Below are positions 1-5,316 of a stretch of DNA of 31,403 bases, one piece after another. The notes below the pieces were generated by a model. The model was not told the origin of the DNA, made no database searches, and saw only the letters and a list, made by a program, of their open reading frames with translations. The stretch is from a virus (lineage: Duplodnaviria > Heunggongvirae > Uroviricota > Caudoviricetes), in the IMG/VR virus record IMGVR_UViG_2623620492_000013; one strand, given 5' to 3'. The translations under genes were made by a program, and so were the position numbers. How positions within the stretch are numbered: position 1 is the stretch's first letter; each line of letters opens with the position of its first letter.

Positions 1-723
1 AACACTCTGACGTTAATGGATAAAGGTTATTACTCACTGGGACTGTTAAATGCCTGGAGCCTGGCGGGAGAACACCGCCACTGGATGATACCTCTCAGAA
101 AGGGAGCGCAATATGAAGAGATCAGAAAACTGGGTAAAGGCGATCATCTGGTGAAGCTGAAAACCAGCCCGCAGGCACGAAAAAAGTGGCCGGGACTGGG
201 AAATGAAGTGACTGCCCGCCTGCTGACCGTGACGCGCAAAGGAAAAGTCTGCCATCTGCTGACGTCGATGACGGACGCCATGCGCTTCCCCGGAGGAGAA
301 ATGGGGGATCTGTACAGTCATCGCTGGGAAATCGAACTGGGATACAGGGAGATAAAACAGACGATGCAACGGAGCAGGCTGACGCTGAGAAGTAAAAAGC
401 CGGAGCTTGTGGAGCAAGAGCTGTGGGGTGTCTTACTGGCTTATAATCTGGTGAGATATCAGATGATTAAAATGGCGGAACATCTGAAAGGTTACTGGCC
501 GAATCAACTGAGTTTCTCAGAATCATGCGGAATGGTGATGAGAATGCTGATGACATTGCAGGGCGCTTCACCGGGACGTATACCGGAGCTGATGCGCGAT
601 CTTGCAAGTATGGGACAACTTGTGAAATTACCGACAAGAAGGGAAAGGGCCTTCCCGAGAGTGGTAAAGGAGAGGCCCTGGAAATACCCCACAGCCCCGA
701 AAAAGAGCCAGTCAGTTGCTTAA
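1..723 (+). CDS. IS4-family DDE transposase, 3' portion (5' end lies outside the window)
   Basis: Reading frame is open from base 1 to the stop at 723. The C-terminus carries the IS4-family signature Y-(2)-R-(3)-E-(6)-K in YSHRWEIELGYREIK. Confidence 0.75.
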   Translation, partial: NTLTLMDKGYYSLGLLNAWSLAGEHRHWMIPLRKGAQYEEIRKLGKGDHLVKLKTSPQARKKWPGLGNEVTARLLTVTRKGKVCHLLTSMTDAMRFPGGEMGDLYSHRWEIELGYREIKQTMQRSRLTLRSKKPELVEQELWGVLLAYNLVRYQMIKMAEHLKGYWPNQLSFSESCGMVMRMLMTLQGASPGRIPELMRDLASMGQLVKLPTRRERAFPRVVKERPWKYPTAPKKSQSVA

Positions 724-791: not shown

Positions 792-1118
792 ATGAAGCCC
801 AAGAAGCTAAATGCTGAGCAGCAATACAAATTAGACCTTGAATTGGTCAAGAAGAAGCCTGCGAACCGGACCGAGGCAAAAGCCCATTTGGCCGCACAGT
901 TACGGATCAGCAAGTACAAGACGCAGACCTCTTCCAAAATCCGCGTAGGCAGTTTTAAGGGGCGGAAGAAGGTACATTTCAGTAAGGCGGAACAAGCAGC
1001 CAGGGCAGCACTAAATAAAGCAAATGCCATTAGATTTTCCGAAGGGGAGGTCGAGTCCGTCGATACGGATAGAATCTCAGAAAGTAACAAACGCTGGCGC
1101 GGGAGAACTGCTGACTAA
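792..1118 (+). CDS. Hypothetical phage protein, basic
   Basis: ORF with ATG at 792 (TTG at 774 is the alternative). Lysine/arginine rich; stop overlaps the next start as TAATG. Confidence 0.5.
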
Positions 1119-1372
1119 TGTCTGACTGGAATATTGCTGCAAAGCCGCAGGAAGAACGCGACAAGGTTAATGTTGACCTGGCAGCCTCCGGCGTGGCCTA
1201 CAAAGAGCGCCTGAATATGCCGGTTATCGCCGAGCAGGTAGCTCGTGAGCAACCAGAGCATCTACGAGAGTATTTCATGGATCGCGTGCGGCACTATCGC
1301 GAGCAGAGCGTTGCATTGCCTAAGGCATCTGATCCTCGCTACATTGAAATGACTGAGCAAAATGCAAAATAA
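1118..1372 (+). CDS. Hypothetical phage protein
   Basis: 84-aa ORF translationally coupled to its upstream neighbour. No motif recognised. Confidence 0.5.
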
Positions 1373-1388
1373 ATTTCAGGAGATTCAA

Positions 1389-1649
1389 ATGGAAAATAGC
1401 ATGAGCATCACAACGATTCTTGAAAGAGAAAGGGAGCTTGATGATCTTGTTAAGGTGTGCCTCGATGAGCTTGAGGTGATTGACATCCATGGACAGGTTT
1501 ACTCAATTCCTCTTTCCCACCTAACGAACGCAGAGCAGGTGGTACATTGGGTCTGGAAGATTGCTGAGAGAGGTGATTTCGCCATGGATGTTGTTCGTAA
1601 ATTTACTGAAGTTGCGTCCCATCATGTGGGGTTTGACGCTAAAAAATAA
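1389..1649 (+). CDS. Hypothetical phage protein
   Basis: ORF with AGGAG 7 nt upstream of the ATG at 1389; the alternative start at 1362 lacks an RBS. Confidence 0.5.
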   Translation: MENSMSITTILERERELDDLVKVCLDELEVIDIHGQVYSIPLSHLTNAEQVVHWVWKIAERGDFAMDVVRKFTEVASHHVGFDAKK

Positions 1650-1699
1650 ATCGCCAAGGACCGATTTAATAGCTATACACATGTTTTACATTCCGCTCG

Positions 1700-1728
1700 C
1701 ATCTTAACCAAATCTTTCTTGGTATAAT
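1700..1728 (+). promoter_or_regulatory. Candidate sigma70 promoter with extended -10 (TGgTATAAT)
   Basis: tggtataat at 1720-1728 in an AT-rich intergenic region upstream of the zinc-ribbon ORF. Confidence 0.4.
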
Positions 1729-1767
1729 GATTTTTTACAGGCGAATGACGTGTGAGGTCCGGGATTT

Positions 1768-1965
1768 ATGACTTGTGAAGTATGTAACAAACAACCCCTT
1801 GGACGAAGGGACCCGCCTCTTCCATGCATGGTCTTGCAAGGCGATAAATCCGTTAACTTCAGCCATCACGGACGCGAAGCAAACGAGCGTTATTACAAAT
1901 GCTCGGAATGCGGTCATGAGTGGATGAGAGAGACAGGAAATTGCGGCGAAGGCTGGATTCCTTAA
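1768..1965 (+). CDS. Small zinc-ribbon protein
   Basis: 65 aa with two CxxC pairs (CEVC near the N-terminus, CSEC near the C-terminus). Confidence 0.55.
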   Translation: MTCEVCNKQPLGRRDPPLPCMVLQGDKSVNFSHHGREANERYYKCSECGHEWMRETGNCGEGWIP

Positions 1966-2043
1966 CTATATATTGTCGCTATTCGCAAATTGATTTTCTC
2001 AAATCATCCCGCCATAATTAAGTCGCAGTCGGCCTGAACACCC

Positions 2044-2090
2044 GATTGTGACTTCTGCGCATTTAAGGGGACTTAAATGCGACCACAATC
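2044..2090. repeat. Nested imperfect inverted repeat
   Basis: Perfect 10-bp arms cgcatttaag / cttaaatgcg around a GGGA loop, flanked by outer arms gattgtg / cacaatc. No T-run follows. Confidence 0.6.
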
Positions 2091-2112
2091 TGAAATCCTC
2101 ACCTTGTCACAG

Positions 2113-2142
2113 ATGCAGAAATGCACCTGCGATTTTCTGCAT
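2113..2142. repeat. 9-bp inverted repeat upstream of the ninB RBS
   Basis: atgcagaaa and tttctgcat separated by 12 bp, ending about 18 nt before the RBS aaggagg. Confidence 0.55.
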
Positions 2143-2168
2143 TCTGCGGTTTCCGTTAAGGAGGCCGT

Positions 2169-2624
2169 ATGACTCTTCCAGTAGACGGCATCAAGCTCCA
2201 TCGCGGCAACTTCGCAGCCATCGGTCAGCAGATTCAGCCCTTGCTTGATGCCGGGCAATGCTTTCGCCTTCAGGTTAAGCCGTGGCGCGAGAAGCGCAGC
2301 CTGTCGCAGAACGCTCTCAGCCACATGTGGTACACGGAAATCAGCGAATGCCTCATCACCCGCGGCAAGACCTTCGCTACGCCTGAATGGGTCAAAGACG
2401 CGATGAAGCACACCTATCTCGGCTACGAAAGCAAGGACAGGGTAGACGTCGTGTCCGGAGAGGTAACCACGGTCCAATCCCTCCGCCATACGTCAGAGCT
2501 GGAAACCGGCGAGATGTACATCTTCCTGTGCAAAGTCGAAGCCTGGGCGATGAATATTGGATGCCACCTGACCATTCCGCAGAGCTGCGAGTACCAGCAG
2601 CTGCGCGATAAGCAGGAGGCCTGA
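2169..2624 (+). CDS. ninB: NinB-family recombination protein
   Basis: 151 aa with strong RBS (taaggagg). The RSLSQN...W motif resembles lambda NinB (RSLDQN...LW); sits in a nin-like region. Confidence 0.7.
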   Translation: MTLPVDGIKLHRGNFAAIGQQIQPLLDAGQCFRLQVKPWREKRSLSQNALSHMWYTEISECLITRGKTFATPEWVKDAMKHTYLGYESKDRVDVVSGEVTTVQSLRHTSELETGEMYIFLCKVEAWAMNIGCHLTIPQSCEYQQLRDKQEA

Positions 2625-2794
2625 TGTCTACTCCACTTTCCCGCGTCATCACCAACGAAATCTTCCGCGTTCCGGCGCGCCGCAAGCGTAAGCCAGCGGT
2701 TAAGCCGTCCGACATCCCGACTTTCAAGGACTACACCGCCCGCCTGGTCGATCAGAAATGGCTGCGTCTCGCAGCGAGGAGAAAATCCGCATGA
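2624..2794 (+). CDS. Small basic hypothetical protein (56 aa, absent from the ORF track)
   Basis: ATG overlaps the ninB stop (TGATG) and its stop overlaps the phosphatase start (ATGA), a typical coupled chain of small nin-region genes. Confidence 0.45.
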
Positions 2795-3459
2795 GCATGT
2801 ATCAACGCATTAATGGCGCTGACTGGCGCAATATCTTCGTTGTGGGCGATCTGCATGGGTGCTACACGCTGCTGATGAGTGAGCTCGAAAAAGCTTCGTT
2901 CGACCCGGCGCGTGATTTGCTGATCTCGGTTGGAGACCTTGTTGACCGCGGCGCGGAAAACGTCGAGTGCCTGGAGCTGATTACTATGCCGTGGTTCCGG
3001 GCTGTGCGAGGAAACCATGAGCAGATGATGATTGATGGGCTATCGGAGTATGGGAACGTCAATCACTGGTTGGCAAATGGTGGCGGCTGGTTCTTCAATC
3101 TCGACTATGACAAAGAAGTGCTGGCTAAGGCTCTGGTTCACAAAGCAGCTGAGCTGCCACTCGTCATCGAGCTGGTTACCGCTGAGCGTAAAATCGTTAT
3201 CTGCCACGCTGACTACCCGCATAACGAATATGCGTTCGATAAGCCCATCCCGAAAGATATGGTCATCTGGAATCGTGAGAGGGTTAGCGACGCACAGGAC
3301 GGCATAGTATCGACGATAGCCGGTGCTGATCTGTTTATCTTCGGCCACACCCCAGCGCGCCAGCCCCTGAAGTATGCCAACCAGATGTACATCGACACCG
3401 GCGCCGTGTTCTGCGGAAACCTCACGCTGGTAAAGGTGCAAGGCGGTGAACATGCGTAA
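2791..3459 (+). CDS. Serine/threonine protein phosphatase (lambda PPase-like metallophosphoesterase)
   Basis: Motifs GDLHG, GDLVDRG and GNHE are characteristic of calcineurin-like phosphoesterases. Start taken at the ATG at 2791. Confidence 0.9.
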
Positions 3460-4093
3460 ACCATCCCGCCGTAAGTGCAAAGTATGCGGGGAATACTTCG
3501 TGCCGAAATTCCACGATATCCGGATCCGCTGGTGCAGCCCGGAGCACGGCGCAATCCTCGCGATGGAAGAACGTCAAAAGGAGAAGGTGAAAGCCGCTGC
3601 TAAGCGCATTAAGGAGCAGAAGGAGGCAGAGAAGGCCGGGCGCAAACGCCGCAAGGAGAGGCTGGCAGAGCTACGCCCAGCAGGTTACTACAAAGCGCAG
3701 GCTCAGCAGGCATTCAACGCCTACATCCGTGCGCGCGATGCTGATTTGCCATGCATCAGCTGCGGAGAGACCAACCCGCCAGATCTGCATGGCGGCCAAT
3801 GGGACTGCGGCCACTTCAAAACGGTCGGCGCTAACCCTGAACTGCGCTTTGAAGAGCGCAATGCCCATAAGCAGTGCAAATCCTGTAATGCCGGAGCGGG
3901 CAAATATACCGCCAAAGAGGCGACGGTAGCGCAGCAATACGAAGCTGGTCTGGTCGCTCGTTACGGGCAGGAGTACGTGGACTGGCTCAACGGCCCCCAC
4001 GAAATGACCAACTACCGCCGTGAAGACTTCATTCGGATCCGCGATGAATACCGCGCCAAGCTCAAAGCACTGAAACAGTGGGAGGCCGCATGA
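3452..4093 (+). CDS. ninG: NinG/Rap-family recombination protein
   Basis: N-terminal CKVC...WCSPEHG and central PCISCG...WDCGH...HKQCKSCN cysteine clusters match the lambda NinG pattern. Confidence 0.85.
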
Positions 4094-4206
4094 ACCAAGC
4101 CGATTTCCTCCGTTACCAGGCAGAAAGCGTTAAGCGCGCCAGCATGCCGCCAGTAGCAAAGCACAGCCAGACCAAAACCAACCAGCCTCAGAAGGAAGCC
4201 GCATAA
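4090..4206 (+). CDS. Small hypothetical protein (38 aa, absent from the ORF track)
   Basis: ATGA overlap with the ninG stop and ATAATG overlap with the Q start. Weak evidence. Confidence 0.3.
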   Translation: MNQADFLRYQAESVKRASMPPVAKHSQTKTNQPQKEAA

Positions 4207-4706
4207 TGAAACTGGAATTAACCAACGACCAGCATCAATGGGTAGACCAGTGGCTCCAGTTGTGGGGCGCATGGTGCCAGACCGGCAAGATTGATAAAGC
4301 GATGATCAACATGATTGCCAGATTCATGGCTACCGTCGAGCCCCAGCAAGCATCACGACCGGTATGTAGTGATGATGACGGGATGCTCATTGATGCTGTC
4401 ATTCGTCACTATCTGAAGAATGTGGATGAAAATGCCTGGCGGGTTGTCTTCGCCTACTACGTTTGTAACTCCAGCGAGATCCGAATTGCATCATGGCAGC
4501 ATGCAGTAAGTAAGCCTCGCCTGATGAAGACGCGTGGCGGAAATCAGTATAAACACCCAAGCATCTCGACAATCCGTAGAGAGGTGAAGCAAATCATCAA
4601 TGCCTCACTGTTCTGTTTGTACCAACCGCTGCAAAATGCGTTTAACAATCGCGAAAATGTGAGGAAAATTGCAAAAAATCCTCATAACGCGCTTGCTTTT
4701 CAATGA
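4206..4706 (+). CDS. Late-gene antitermination protein Q
   Basis: Position between the nin genes and the lysis cassette, followed by tandem intrinsic terminators. N-terminal QW/W-rich region resembles Q-family proteins as recalled. Confidence 0.7.
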   Translation: MKLELTNDQHQWVDQWLQLWGAWCQTGKIDKAMINMIARFMATVEPQQASRPVCSDDDGMLIDAVIRHYLKNVDENAWRVVFAYYVCNSSEIRIASWQHAVSKPRLMKTRGGNQYKHPSISTIRREVKQIINASLFCLYQPLQNAFNNRENVRKIAKNPHNALAFQ

Positions 4707-4767
4707 ACAAATGAGCAGAATAAATCGTATATGTTGCCGTTGTTGTGTGTGACATGAATGAATGCCA

Positions 4768-4796
4768 AGCCTCGCCATCGTGCGGGGCTTTTTTAT
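4768..4796 (+). terminator. Intrinsic terminator in the late leader (tR'-like)
   Basis: gcctcgc-catcgt-gcggggc hairpin followed by a 7-T run. Confidence 0.55.
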
Positions 4797-4872
4797 TTGC
4801 GGTACGCCGCACACAGAACCCACTACCTGGGACCCTTCGGCCAGAGAGCCGACATTGCCTTACCCTCATCTT

Positions 4873-4897
4873 CCTGGCTTGTCGCCAGGTTTTTTAT
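4873..4897 (+). terminator. Second intrinsic terminator in the late leader
   Basis: cctggc-ttgtc-gccagg hairpin followed by a T-run. Confidence 0.55.
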
Positions 4898-4995
4898 TCC
4901 AGGCCGCAGACAATCAATTCCAGATGCCACGTAGCTAACGTGTCTGACGGCCTTTCCCCTACTACCACACAGCACCCCGGAACCGGAGGTGTGGA

Positions 4996-5316
4996 ATGCA
5001 ACGTATGAACCCAACAGATGGACACAATCTGCCTTACTGGTGGTCAACTCTTCTGGGGTTATTTTCCGTTCTCAGTTTACAGGACTACGTCTTTATTCTC
5101 GGCGCGCTGGTCTCTGCATACTTCACGATTAAGACCTATTACGCGAAACGGAAAGAAGAGCGTGAACGGCTGGAAGAAGAAAAGAAACGTACACAGTTAC
5201 TGGCTAAATACCTTGCTGAGGTAAGCGAGAAACCCCACTCCGAACGTCCGGCATCTGCCGAGGTTGTAACGGAGGCAATGCGGAGAATGTCCAGTGGCGA
5301 ACTTGAAGCTGAGTAA
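4996..5316 (+). CDS. Holin
   Basis: 106 aa with two hydrophobic segments and a highly charged C-terminus; GGAGG RBS; first gene of the lysis cassette. Confidence 0.8.
   Translation: MQRMNPTDGHNLPYWWSTLLGLFSVLSLQDYVFILGALVSAYFTIKTYYAKRKEERERLEEEKKRTQLLAKYLAEVSEKPHSERPASAEVVTEAMRRMSSGELEAE

Follow-up and report, generated by a model that had tools for sequence, protein, structure and literature searches.

What do the inverted repeats ahead of ninB contribute to the phage that carries them? The question arises from IMG/VR record IMGVR_UViG_2623620492_000013, a 31,403-nucleotide (nt) stretch of Caudoviricetes DNA (hereafter the window), in which a first-pass annotation made from the sequence alone had placed a 10-base-pair (bp) stem with outer 7-bp arms, and a second repeat of 9 bp, in what it took to be the intergenic region upstream of ninB. 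Comparison of this region with its relatives leads us to consider it probable that the hairpins are parts of a structured mRNA leader of approximately 150 nt, which opens the nin block (ninB to Q) in many lambdoid phages and acts as a gate that is shut by default. Four hairpins (termed H0, H1, H2' and H3) are kept by compensatory changes across the phage and prophage copies compared, over 100 of which are distinct, and the leader as a whole folds with an energy of -63.7 kcal/mol (z-score -5.7). The features on which the argument draws are listed here by position in the window.

1990-2018, plus strand: sigma-70 promoter-like site found by a consensus scan, with the -35 hexamer TTGATT (1990-1995), a 17-bp spacer and the -10 hexamer CATAAT (2013-2018).
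2020-2054, plus strand: H0, a hairpin of up to 13 bp (2020-2032 with 2042-2054) with the loop CCUGAACAC at 2033-2041, overlooked by the first-pass annotation.
2050-2060, plus strand: junction between H0 and H1, the near-invariant GACUUCUGCGC, with alignment columns at least 90% conserved.
2058-2081, plus strand: H1, a 10-bp stem (2058-2067 with 2072-2081) closed by a GGGA tetraloop of the GNRA type; the first hairpin of the first-pass annotation.
2077-2172, plus strand: leader open reading frame (ORF) of 31 codons (MRPQSEILTLSQMQKCTCDFLHSAVSVKEAV), a homolog of ylcH of Escherichia coli K-12 and orf33 of phage 82.
2082-2111, plus strand: C-rich, G-poor stretch (11 C and 2 G in 30 nt) that opens the leader ORF.
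2106-2142, plus strand: H2' and its U-rich run, inside the leader ORF; arms 2106-2117 and 2122-2133, loop GAAA at 2118-2121, run UUUUCUGCAU at 2133-2142.
2113-2142, plus strand: the second repeat of the first-pass annotation (2113-2121 with 2134-2142), whose formation excludes H2' and whose 3' arm is the U-rich run.
2145-2169, plus strand: H3, a 10-bp hairpin (2145-2154 with 2160-2169) with the loop GUUAA, likewise overlooked at first.
2169-2624, plus strand: ninB, the first long gene of a ninB-NinE-phosphatase-NinG-Q block.

To collect copies of the leader, an exact 21-mer of its core was used, which retrieved 120 viral contigs and, together with phage and K-12 copies, yielded 103 distinct versions. 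A second pattern, from which the E. coli-type core was excluded, supplied a Klebsiella-type clade and intermediates, to which Klebsiella phages from GenBank were added. Copies gathered by fixed patterns are uninformative about conservation of the pattern itself, and reliance was placed on variation outside it and on compensatory changes. A scan of a genome collection with the pattern TGAACN{8,12}GACTTCTGCGC returned almost exclusively chance matches in unrelated phyla, the only real one being a Lelliottia locus (L157). For H0 and H1 together, a covariance model was built from 8 seeds and 92 matches, 56 of them distinct, were aligned to it; this alignment is fitted to the model and favours structure. 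It was nevertheless used in place of a plain MAFFT alignment, the pair counts of which were dropped because stems of unequal length were misaligned. Fold energies were compared with those of dinucleotide shuffles (n = 200 for H1).

All three of the originally described repeats are present in the window as stated (10 bp around a 4-nt loop, 7 bp, and 9 bp with 12 nt between the arms, each 100% complementary), and the strong folding attributed to them was borne out: H1 folds at -13.3 kcal/mol (z -5.9, with 0 of 200 shuffles as good), H1 with the outer arms at -18.2 kcal/mol (z -5.5) and the region of the second repeat at -16.4 kcal/mol (z -3.6). Their comparative histories differ. H1 occurs in at least nine stem versions of -13 to -17 kcal/mol (examples being AUUUAAG/CUUAAAU, CUAAACG/CGUUUA and CUUUGAG/CUCAAAG), all of which carry the GGGA loop; all 10 of its pairs show compensatory change, 99.8% of alignment cells are paired, and of the two strands it is the plus strand that folds better, in 13 of 13 versions. 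The loop falls within the Shine-Dalgarno sequence AAGGGGA (2065-2071) and the leader ATG (2077-2079) lies in the 3' arm, as does an ATG or GTG start codon in every version. Since the 4-nt loop needs to be melted for pairing with the anti-Shine-Dalgarno sequence, and since the start codon is held in the stem, H1 should strongly limit initiation of the leader. For this hairpin, with its covarying stem, its GGGA within the Shine-Dalgarno sequence and its start codon in the 3' arm, the earlier suggestion of a translational control element is upheld; it does not extend to the second repeat.

Four Klebsiella phages (RothC, ST101-KPC2phi6.1, Mulock and RAH1; loci L246-L249) carry H1 in another setting, in which its ATG is the annotated start of a 198-amino-acid (aa) DUF1367 gene and the leader ORF is absent. 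Because H0 and H1 there sit directly on the start of that gene, H1 appears to be a portable initiation region. Upstream of H0, three of these four phages have the promoter-like sequence TTGCTT-17-GATAAT, while RothC has one of the TTGATT type.

H0 begins 1-6 nt after the -10 hexamer, so that a transcript from this promoter would open with it, at or within a few nucleotides of its 5' end. It folds at -17.5 kcal/mol (z -4.7) and is represented by 38 distinct 8-bp stems, with three to six pair types at each stem position, while the loop motif YUGRAC is kept. At stem positions 3-8 there are 32 G.U pairs versus 3 A.C pairs; as judged from these sequences, such an excess is a strand-specific RNA signature, unlike that of a DNA palindrome, and it disfavours the protein-binding DNA palindrome that had been proposed among the possible functions. 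In the model-guided alignment, 10 of the 11 pairs of H0 alone changed on both sides, and for H0 and H1 taken together this was true of 20 of 21 pairs, with 94.8% of cells paired as against 78.6% in shuffles and 25-48% in slid controls; none of 500 shuffles reached any of the five measures. H0 may act as a 5' stabiliser, as a weak terminator or pause, or as a recognition loop. The sequence UUCUGC(G), found in the junction ahead of H1 (2053-2059), recurs in the U-rich run after H2' (2136-2141) and ahead of H3 (2142-2148), and the window holds no surplus copies of UUCUGCG elsewhere. A pseudoknot between the H0 loop and sequence near H3 was considered and rejected, as the pairing (compared by eye) was inconsistent across variants.

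The outer 7-bp arms (2044-2050 with 2084-2090) fared differently, being non-complementary in phi80 and phage 82. When the whole leader is folded, the minimum-energy structure lacks them, and they lose to H0, in which the bases of their 5' arm serve as the 3' arm; this outer pairing is specific to the H0 variant of the window, an alternative to H0 and probably fortuitous. Likewise, the second repeat, the last arm of which does end close to the ninB ribosome-binding site (RBS) as had been noted (17 nt before GGAGG), was 85.2% paired across 24 haplotypes versus 85.8% in shuffles; no pair changed on both sides, and two central pairs were broken in 13 of the 24 haplotypes, as they are in the Klebsiella-type copies. 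Covariation, by which the first-pass annotation had proposed that its hairpins be judged, is therefore found in the H1 stem, the outer arms not being conserved and the second repeat showing no compensatory change.

It is the overlapping hairpin H2' that is kept in the same 24 haplotypes. Its core comprises the pairs 2110-2112/2127-2129 and 2114-2117/2122-2125 plus a 3-bp extension, with conserved A.C mismatches at 2113/2126 and 2109/2130, and its energy is -10.0 kcal/mol in the window and -10.2 kcal/mol on average over 68 distinct versions. Of the alignment cells 98.2% are paired, compared with 76.8% after shuffling, three pairs changed on both sides, and none of 500 shuffles reached the score. 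The six nucleotide differences between the E. coli-type and Klebsiella-type cores correspond exactly to three compensatory pairs of H2'. Within the 9 nt that follow the hairpin, all 68 versions have 4-7 T residues (window mean, 1.98), the run in phage 82 being UUUUUUUGCAU. Additionally, the consensus scan flagged terminator-like sites at 2114-2131 and 2137-2149, which are weak 5-bp sub-hairpins in a register differing from that of H2'. The first-pass statement that its repeats lack a T-run holds for the repeats as they were parsed, since hairpin 1 is followed by ACCACAAU and the second repeat by UCUGCGGU, neither of them the run of at least 5 U in 8 nt, starting 0-2 nt behind a GC-rich stem-loop, that marks an intrinsic terminator, and neither pairing appears in the terminator scan; the conclusion that these are not terminators is too strong for the region, however, given the T-rich run of H2'. 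H2' with its U-rich run is attenuator- or terminator-like in appearance, and as a terminator it would be a weak one at best.

The region is not intergenic alone, as had been assumed, for it holds the 31-codon ORF, homologs of which are annotated in phage 82 (orf33) and in K-12 (ylcH, b4588, 'uncharacterized protein'). The tetranucleotide ATGA (2169-2172) contains both the ATG of ninB and, overlapping it, the TGA that ends this ORF. No stop codon interrupts the leader ORF in any of the 104 distinct copies, and among the 103 that were scored all but one (102) have its stop codon overlapping the next ATG or GTG (as ATGA or GTGA), although the gene that follows varies between the YbcN type, genes with a lambda NinB-like N-terminal pattern, and others. 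ATGA coupling is common across nin regions (PMC8022706). Conversely, the peptide shows little sign of constraint: variable sites are equally distributed over codon positions 1, 2 and 3, there are 1.7- to 3.1-fold more nonsynonymous than synonymous changes, any of three unrelated N-termini may be joined to any of three C-termini through free reassortment, and the 31-aa product matches no Pfam, NCBIfam or PHROG family. On this comparison, the leader peptide sequence is not itself conserved or selected, and YlcH is probably a coupling ORF and not a functional product. What does recur behind the start codon is base composition, as the post-start segment of 42 distinct versions, with three unrelated N-termini, contains 8.7% G and 37% C (27% and 25%, respectively, in the window); this G-poor stretch may be an unstructured or Rho-loading segment.

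At the other end of the leader, H3 buries the ninB Shine-Dalgarno sequence GGAGG (2160-2164) together with the A of the ninB ATG. It folds at -15.4 kcal/mol (z -4.5). The 48 distinct versions, which average -14.2 kcal/mol and form three structural classes, do the same for whichever gene follows, 43 of them with a fully paired Shine-Dalgarno sequence. Furthermore, the ninB initiation region is the most structured among the 35 long ORFs of the window (-16.0 versus -7.6 +/- 3.3 kcal/mol).

With regard to transcription, three promoter-like sequences are found at a constant distance ahead of H0: TTGATT-17-CATAAT (the majority type, present in the window), the extended -10 sequence TGTTATAAT, and TTGCTT-17-GATAAT (in Klebsiella phages). 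CATAAT is present in 71 of 102 copies and TTGATT at 17 bp in 78 of 102. A palindrome, TGATTT/AAATCA (1991-1996 and 2001-2006), spans the -35 hexamer and the spacer; it is kept in the majority promoter type, reading TTGAT-N8-ATCAA in most copies, and may represent a candidate operator for some regulator. In K-12, Term-seq 3' ends are recorded at MG1655 positions 572349(+) and 572350(+) (supplementary files 1 and 3 of Adams et al. 2021, PMC7815308), both of which are present in two supplement sheets assigned by the file description to separate growth conditions (PMC7815308). In the DLP12 prophage copy these ends map 5-6 nt beyond the stem of H0, at ...CUCCGGUGAC UUCUG^C (positions 250-251 of locus L253). 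They show that plus-strand RNA containing H0 exists, and their position fits weak termination, pausing or processing after H0. The RNA processing function put forward at first is not otherwise favoured, in that there is no sign of an RNase III site and the conserved stems measure just 7-13 bp.

The structures, the ORF geometry and the absence of constraint on the peptide are read directly from the alignments, and from them we infer functional steps that would run as follows. By default, H1 (-13 to -17 kcal/mol) would block initiation at the leader; in the untranslated RNA, H2' and its U-rich run would then be free to fold into an attenuator, the G-poor stretch possibly serving to load Rho, and H3 would block direct initiation at ninB. 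When the leader is translated, the ribosome would melt H2' so that transcription continues, and it might also keep Rho off the G-poor stretch; on finishing the leader it would unwind H3, allowing termination-reinitiation at the overlapping ninB ATG. The leader thus most likely silences translation, and perhaps transcription too, of the ninB-to-Q block by default. Expression at the K-12 rusA locus, downstream of ybcN, reportedly requires that an insertion bring in an active promoter (PMC4118853), which fits a leader that is off by default. Such a gate, if it operates, would set the expression of nin genes and Q that is possible without N-mediated antitermination (Q being the late-gene activator), and it could bear on the need for promoter insertions at rusA (PMC4118853) as well as on leaky or induced late expression in prophages.

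Several points weigh against this default-off gate. A second reading frame is also open in 86 of the 104 copies, so that openness alone is weak evidence for the leader ORF. Sampling by fixed patterns, the model-fitted alignment of H0 and H1 and the hand-assembled haplotypes of H2' all inflate apparent conservation, and frequent recombination among phages could keep blocks together for non-functional reasons. H2' is of modest stability (-7 to -14 kcal/mol) and contains two A.C mismatches, and no K-12 Term-seq 3' end is recorded at its U-rich run, though the K-12 copy of this run is degenerate. No start site for the leader promoter was found in the supplements of Adams 2021, Cappable-seq and SMRT-Cappable-seq. 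Finally, H1 is so stable that, lacking an opener, the leader might almost never be translated.

The same observations may be read in other ways. The element could be mainly a transcription stop, the counterpart of tR2 of lambda, in which H0 and/or H2' cause termination or pausing of RNA polymerase that lacks antitermination modification, while the ORF and the RBS hairpins are secondary. The location of lambda tR2 at the same place, the K-12 3' ends 5-6 nt after H0, the 4-7 T in 9 nt after H2' in all versions and the terminator-like sites flagged by the scan all speak for such a stop, which we nonetheless regard as unlikely: the tail after H0 is merely UUCUG, hairpin 1 has no U-run and is conserved for its Shine-Dalgarno loop and start codon, no K-12 3' end is recorded at the H2' run, and termination alone leaves H3 and the stop-start overlap unexplained. 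A transcription stop is, moreover, largely compatible with the gate and not exclusive of it. Very doubtful, by comparison with the pattern of variation, is the proposal that the palindromes are DNA operators for a dimeric regulator, as the phage 82 record suggests for H0. Immediately 3' of the -10 hexamer that record annotates a 'possible regulator-binding site'; H0 extends over the point where transcription is expected to start, which is a typical repressor position, and a separate palindrome covers the -35 hexamer and spacer; yet the stems vary while the loops are kept, the reverse of what is seen in operators, the stem body of H0 has 32 G.U-type pairs versus 3 A.C, H1 is better on the plus strand in 13 of 13 versions, and the element spans the immunity types of phi80, phage 82, HK639 and DLP12. 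It is hardly credible that the small ORF encodes a functional micro-protein, YlcH, with the core and the second repeat reflecting coding constraint. Although the K-12 and phage 82 records annotate it as a gene, and although it is correctly spaced from a Shine-Dalgarno sequence, is always open and repeats the motif SQMQKCTC..FLH in E. coli-type copies, this motif was fixed by the search pattern; the Klebsiella type reads SPMAKATG, with both cysteines lost, all six core differences, which make up three compensatory pairs in the RNA, are confined to the first and second codon positions, variation is flat over codon positions, the termini reassort, and no family match was obtained in Pfam, NCBIfam or PHROG.

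The stability of H1 raises the possibility of a regulated switch, in which a trans-acting antisense RNA, small RNA or RNA-binding protein reads the H0 loop or the junction and thereby opens or locks H1. This would explain why the loop (YUGRAC, which resembles the YUNR U-turn motif) and the junction GACUUCUGCGC are kept while the stems vary, and how a hairpin apparently too stable to open unaided could be opened; the architecture, with a stem-loop ahead of a leader ORF coupled to a gene whose RBS is buried, also matches that of tap-repA and repY-repZ, where plasmid replication is controlled by an antisense RNA together with a leader peptide. We hold such a switch to be quite unlikely, as a scan of 1000-3500 detected no minus-strand promoter-like site near the leader, complementary sequences are not in excess within the window, and no candidate partner was found there or, convincingly, in phi80, where the whole genome gave one 12-mer match against a rough chance expectation of about 0.3. 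That match, 12 nt complementary to the 5' side of H0 at phi80 (L256) 33417-33428 (+), lies between the PL operators and gene 40A and is probably due to chance; a partner encoded in trans might still lie beyond the window. A broader form, in which promoter, H0, H1, leader, H2' and H3 make up a self-contained riboregulatory cassette that answers to a trans-acting RNA or protein and gives N-independent, conditional control of ninB to Q, is in our opinion also unlikely; were it true, the cassette would set late-gene timing, including that of Shiga toxin in toxin-converting phages. A less likely version of it makes RNA polymerase itself the target of H0 and H1, as it is for put RNA.

In the window, ninB is of the YbcN type, the Orf recombination mediator (NCBIfam PRK09741 at 2.7e-78; PHROG 72), and is followed on its 3' side by NinE, a metallophosphatase, NinG and the Q antiterminator (Pfam). 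Homology to other phages starts at the -35 hexamer, and from 1990 onwards the relatives of the stretch include phage 82, phi80, HK225, HK639, several Enterobacter and Klebsiella phages and the DLP12 prophage of K-12. The element is carried by phages of Escherichia, Klebsiella and Enterobacter, among them phages of differing immunity types (phi80, phage 82, HK639 and DLP12), and a leader match is present in 3025 of 5426 complete E. coli genomes. Phage 82 and K-12 hold the same element as the window in their orf33 and DLP12 ylcH regions, where the promoter signals, H0, the small ORF and the 4-nt overlap all align. In those records the features are only marked, the promoter as 'putative', H0 as a 'possible regulator-binding site' and the ORF without a name: the phage 82 record (X92588) marks putative -35 and -10 sequences, the inverted repeat, orf33 and the orf33/orf151 overlap, while in phi80 only hairpin 1 is annotated, as 'IR4', and the small ORF is left unannotated. 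Searchable literature on ylcH, ybcN and nin-region leaders yielded no analysis of mechanism, RNA structure or covariation for this element. Rfam 15 gave zero matches over the whole window at the gathering threshold, and for 1950-2220 at E<=10 a single match at chance level (tp2 at E=5).

Second copies of the promoter-H0-H1 unit occur 2.3-4 kb upstream in four loci (L029, L030, L096 and L108). In L029 the units lie at 2250-2400 and 4587-4744; a TAG cuts the upstream leader, behind which come first an inserted cassette, containing one ORF of 201 aa and two paired ORFs of 138 and 133 aa, and then a complete module with ylcH and ybcN. As the second copies bracket the L029 insert and the leader halves reassort freely, this suggests that the cassette also serves as a recombination joint flanking accessory genes.

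The flanks of the leader in the window contain further features. At the left edge, directly upstream of the accessory genes that precede the leader, lies a truncated IS4-family transposase (16-723, plus strand; Pfam DDE_Tnp_1 4.6e-18). Next comes a gene for an 84-aa protein homologous to the theta subunit of DNA polymerase III (1118-1372, plus strand; Pfam DNA_pol3_theta 6e-35), and a theta-type gene is also present ahead of the leader in HK639 and Klebsiella phage RothC. A strong extended -10 motif, TGGTATAAT (1720-1728, plus strand), stands upstream of a 65-aa ORF (1768-1965, plus strand) which is zinc-ribbon-like, with weak Pfam zinc-ribbon matches; 1720-1965 resembles a self-contained accessory gene inserted just ahead of the leader. 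Downstream, a gap of approximately 290 bp (4707-4995) separates the Q gene (4206-4706) from a holin-like ORF (4996-5316); a late promoter and terminator would be expected there, and no Rfam match was obtained in the gap at the gathering threshold.

How does this leader compare with systems that are already understood? Among phage elements, lambda tR2 shares its map position, between replication or accessory genes and ninB, and is likewise a stem-loop ahead of the ninB RBS. It differs in having a canonical GC-rich stem with the run TTTTTATTT, in lacking an ORF or promoter, and in showing no sequence similarity; the lambda locus gave no match to the H0+H1 model. The put sites of HK022 consist of two stem-loops of about 60-70 nt in total, directly downstream of the promoter, which are long and irregular, are not separated by a spacer and bind the zinc-binding domain of beta' (PMC9378689). 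The leader, in contrast, has two regular hairpins 3-7 nt apart, one of which is a ribosome-binding site. The put-like antitermination RNA that had been among the initial suggestions is disfavoured, since the H0+H1 covariance model found nothing in the early region of HK022 (no match at E<=1 in 22000-36000, where PL, PR and both put sites are expected), with the qualification that this model was not built from put. HK639, which we take to be a put-type phage, carries the present module in its nin region. A nut site (boxA and boxB) was also considered and rejected: compared by eye, H0, H1 and H2' have nothing in common with the nutL region of phi80, and no boxA-like sequence precedes the hairpins; a nut site is further disfavoured by the presence of this leader in phages whose early regions differ. 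Prophage small RNAs were discarded too, given that AgvB and AsxR lie 3' of PR', Pas typically lies beside the holin/lysozyme operon, and none of them is at this locus. The PeSL cassettes of T4-type phages combine strong early promoters with efficient terminators and are present in many copies per genome (PMC2839356). The leader resembles them as a small promoter-stem-loop cassette at module boundaries that flanks inserted genes, but it has no sequence relationship to them, occurs once or twice per genome, and includes both an RBS hairpin and a leader ORF.

Closer parallels are found among leaders that are themselves translated. As in attenuators of the type of E. coli pyrBI, where a ribosome close behind the polymerase keeps the terminator from forming, a hairpin and a U-rich run lie inside a short leader ORF, so that translation would block the hairpin; unlike in pyrBI, the candidate hairpin here is weak and carries two A.C mismatches, and a further hairpin locks the leader's own start codon. 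In the tap-repA (IncFII) and repY-repZ (IncI-alpha/IncB) systems, translation of a leader ORF opens a hairpin that buries the RBS of the next gene, the stop and start codons are adjacent or overlapping, a stem-loop precedes the leader RBS and the sequence of the peptide is unimportant. The leader ahead of ninB shares with them the stop-start overlap, the RBS hairpin in the 3' part of the ORF and the unselected peptide. It differs in that the window scan found no cis-encoded antisense RNA gene or promoter, in that the aligned sequences (by eye) hold no consistent complementarity for a pseudoknot between the loop and downstream sequence, and in that it belongs to a phage early operon and not to a replicon. 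Without an entry in Rfam, Pfam, NCBIfam or PHROG, the leader fits a known class of devices that combine coupling through a leader ORF with attenuation.

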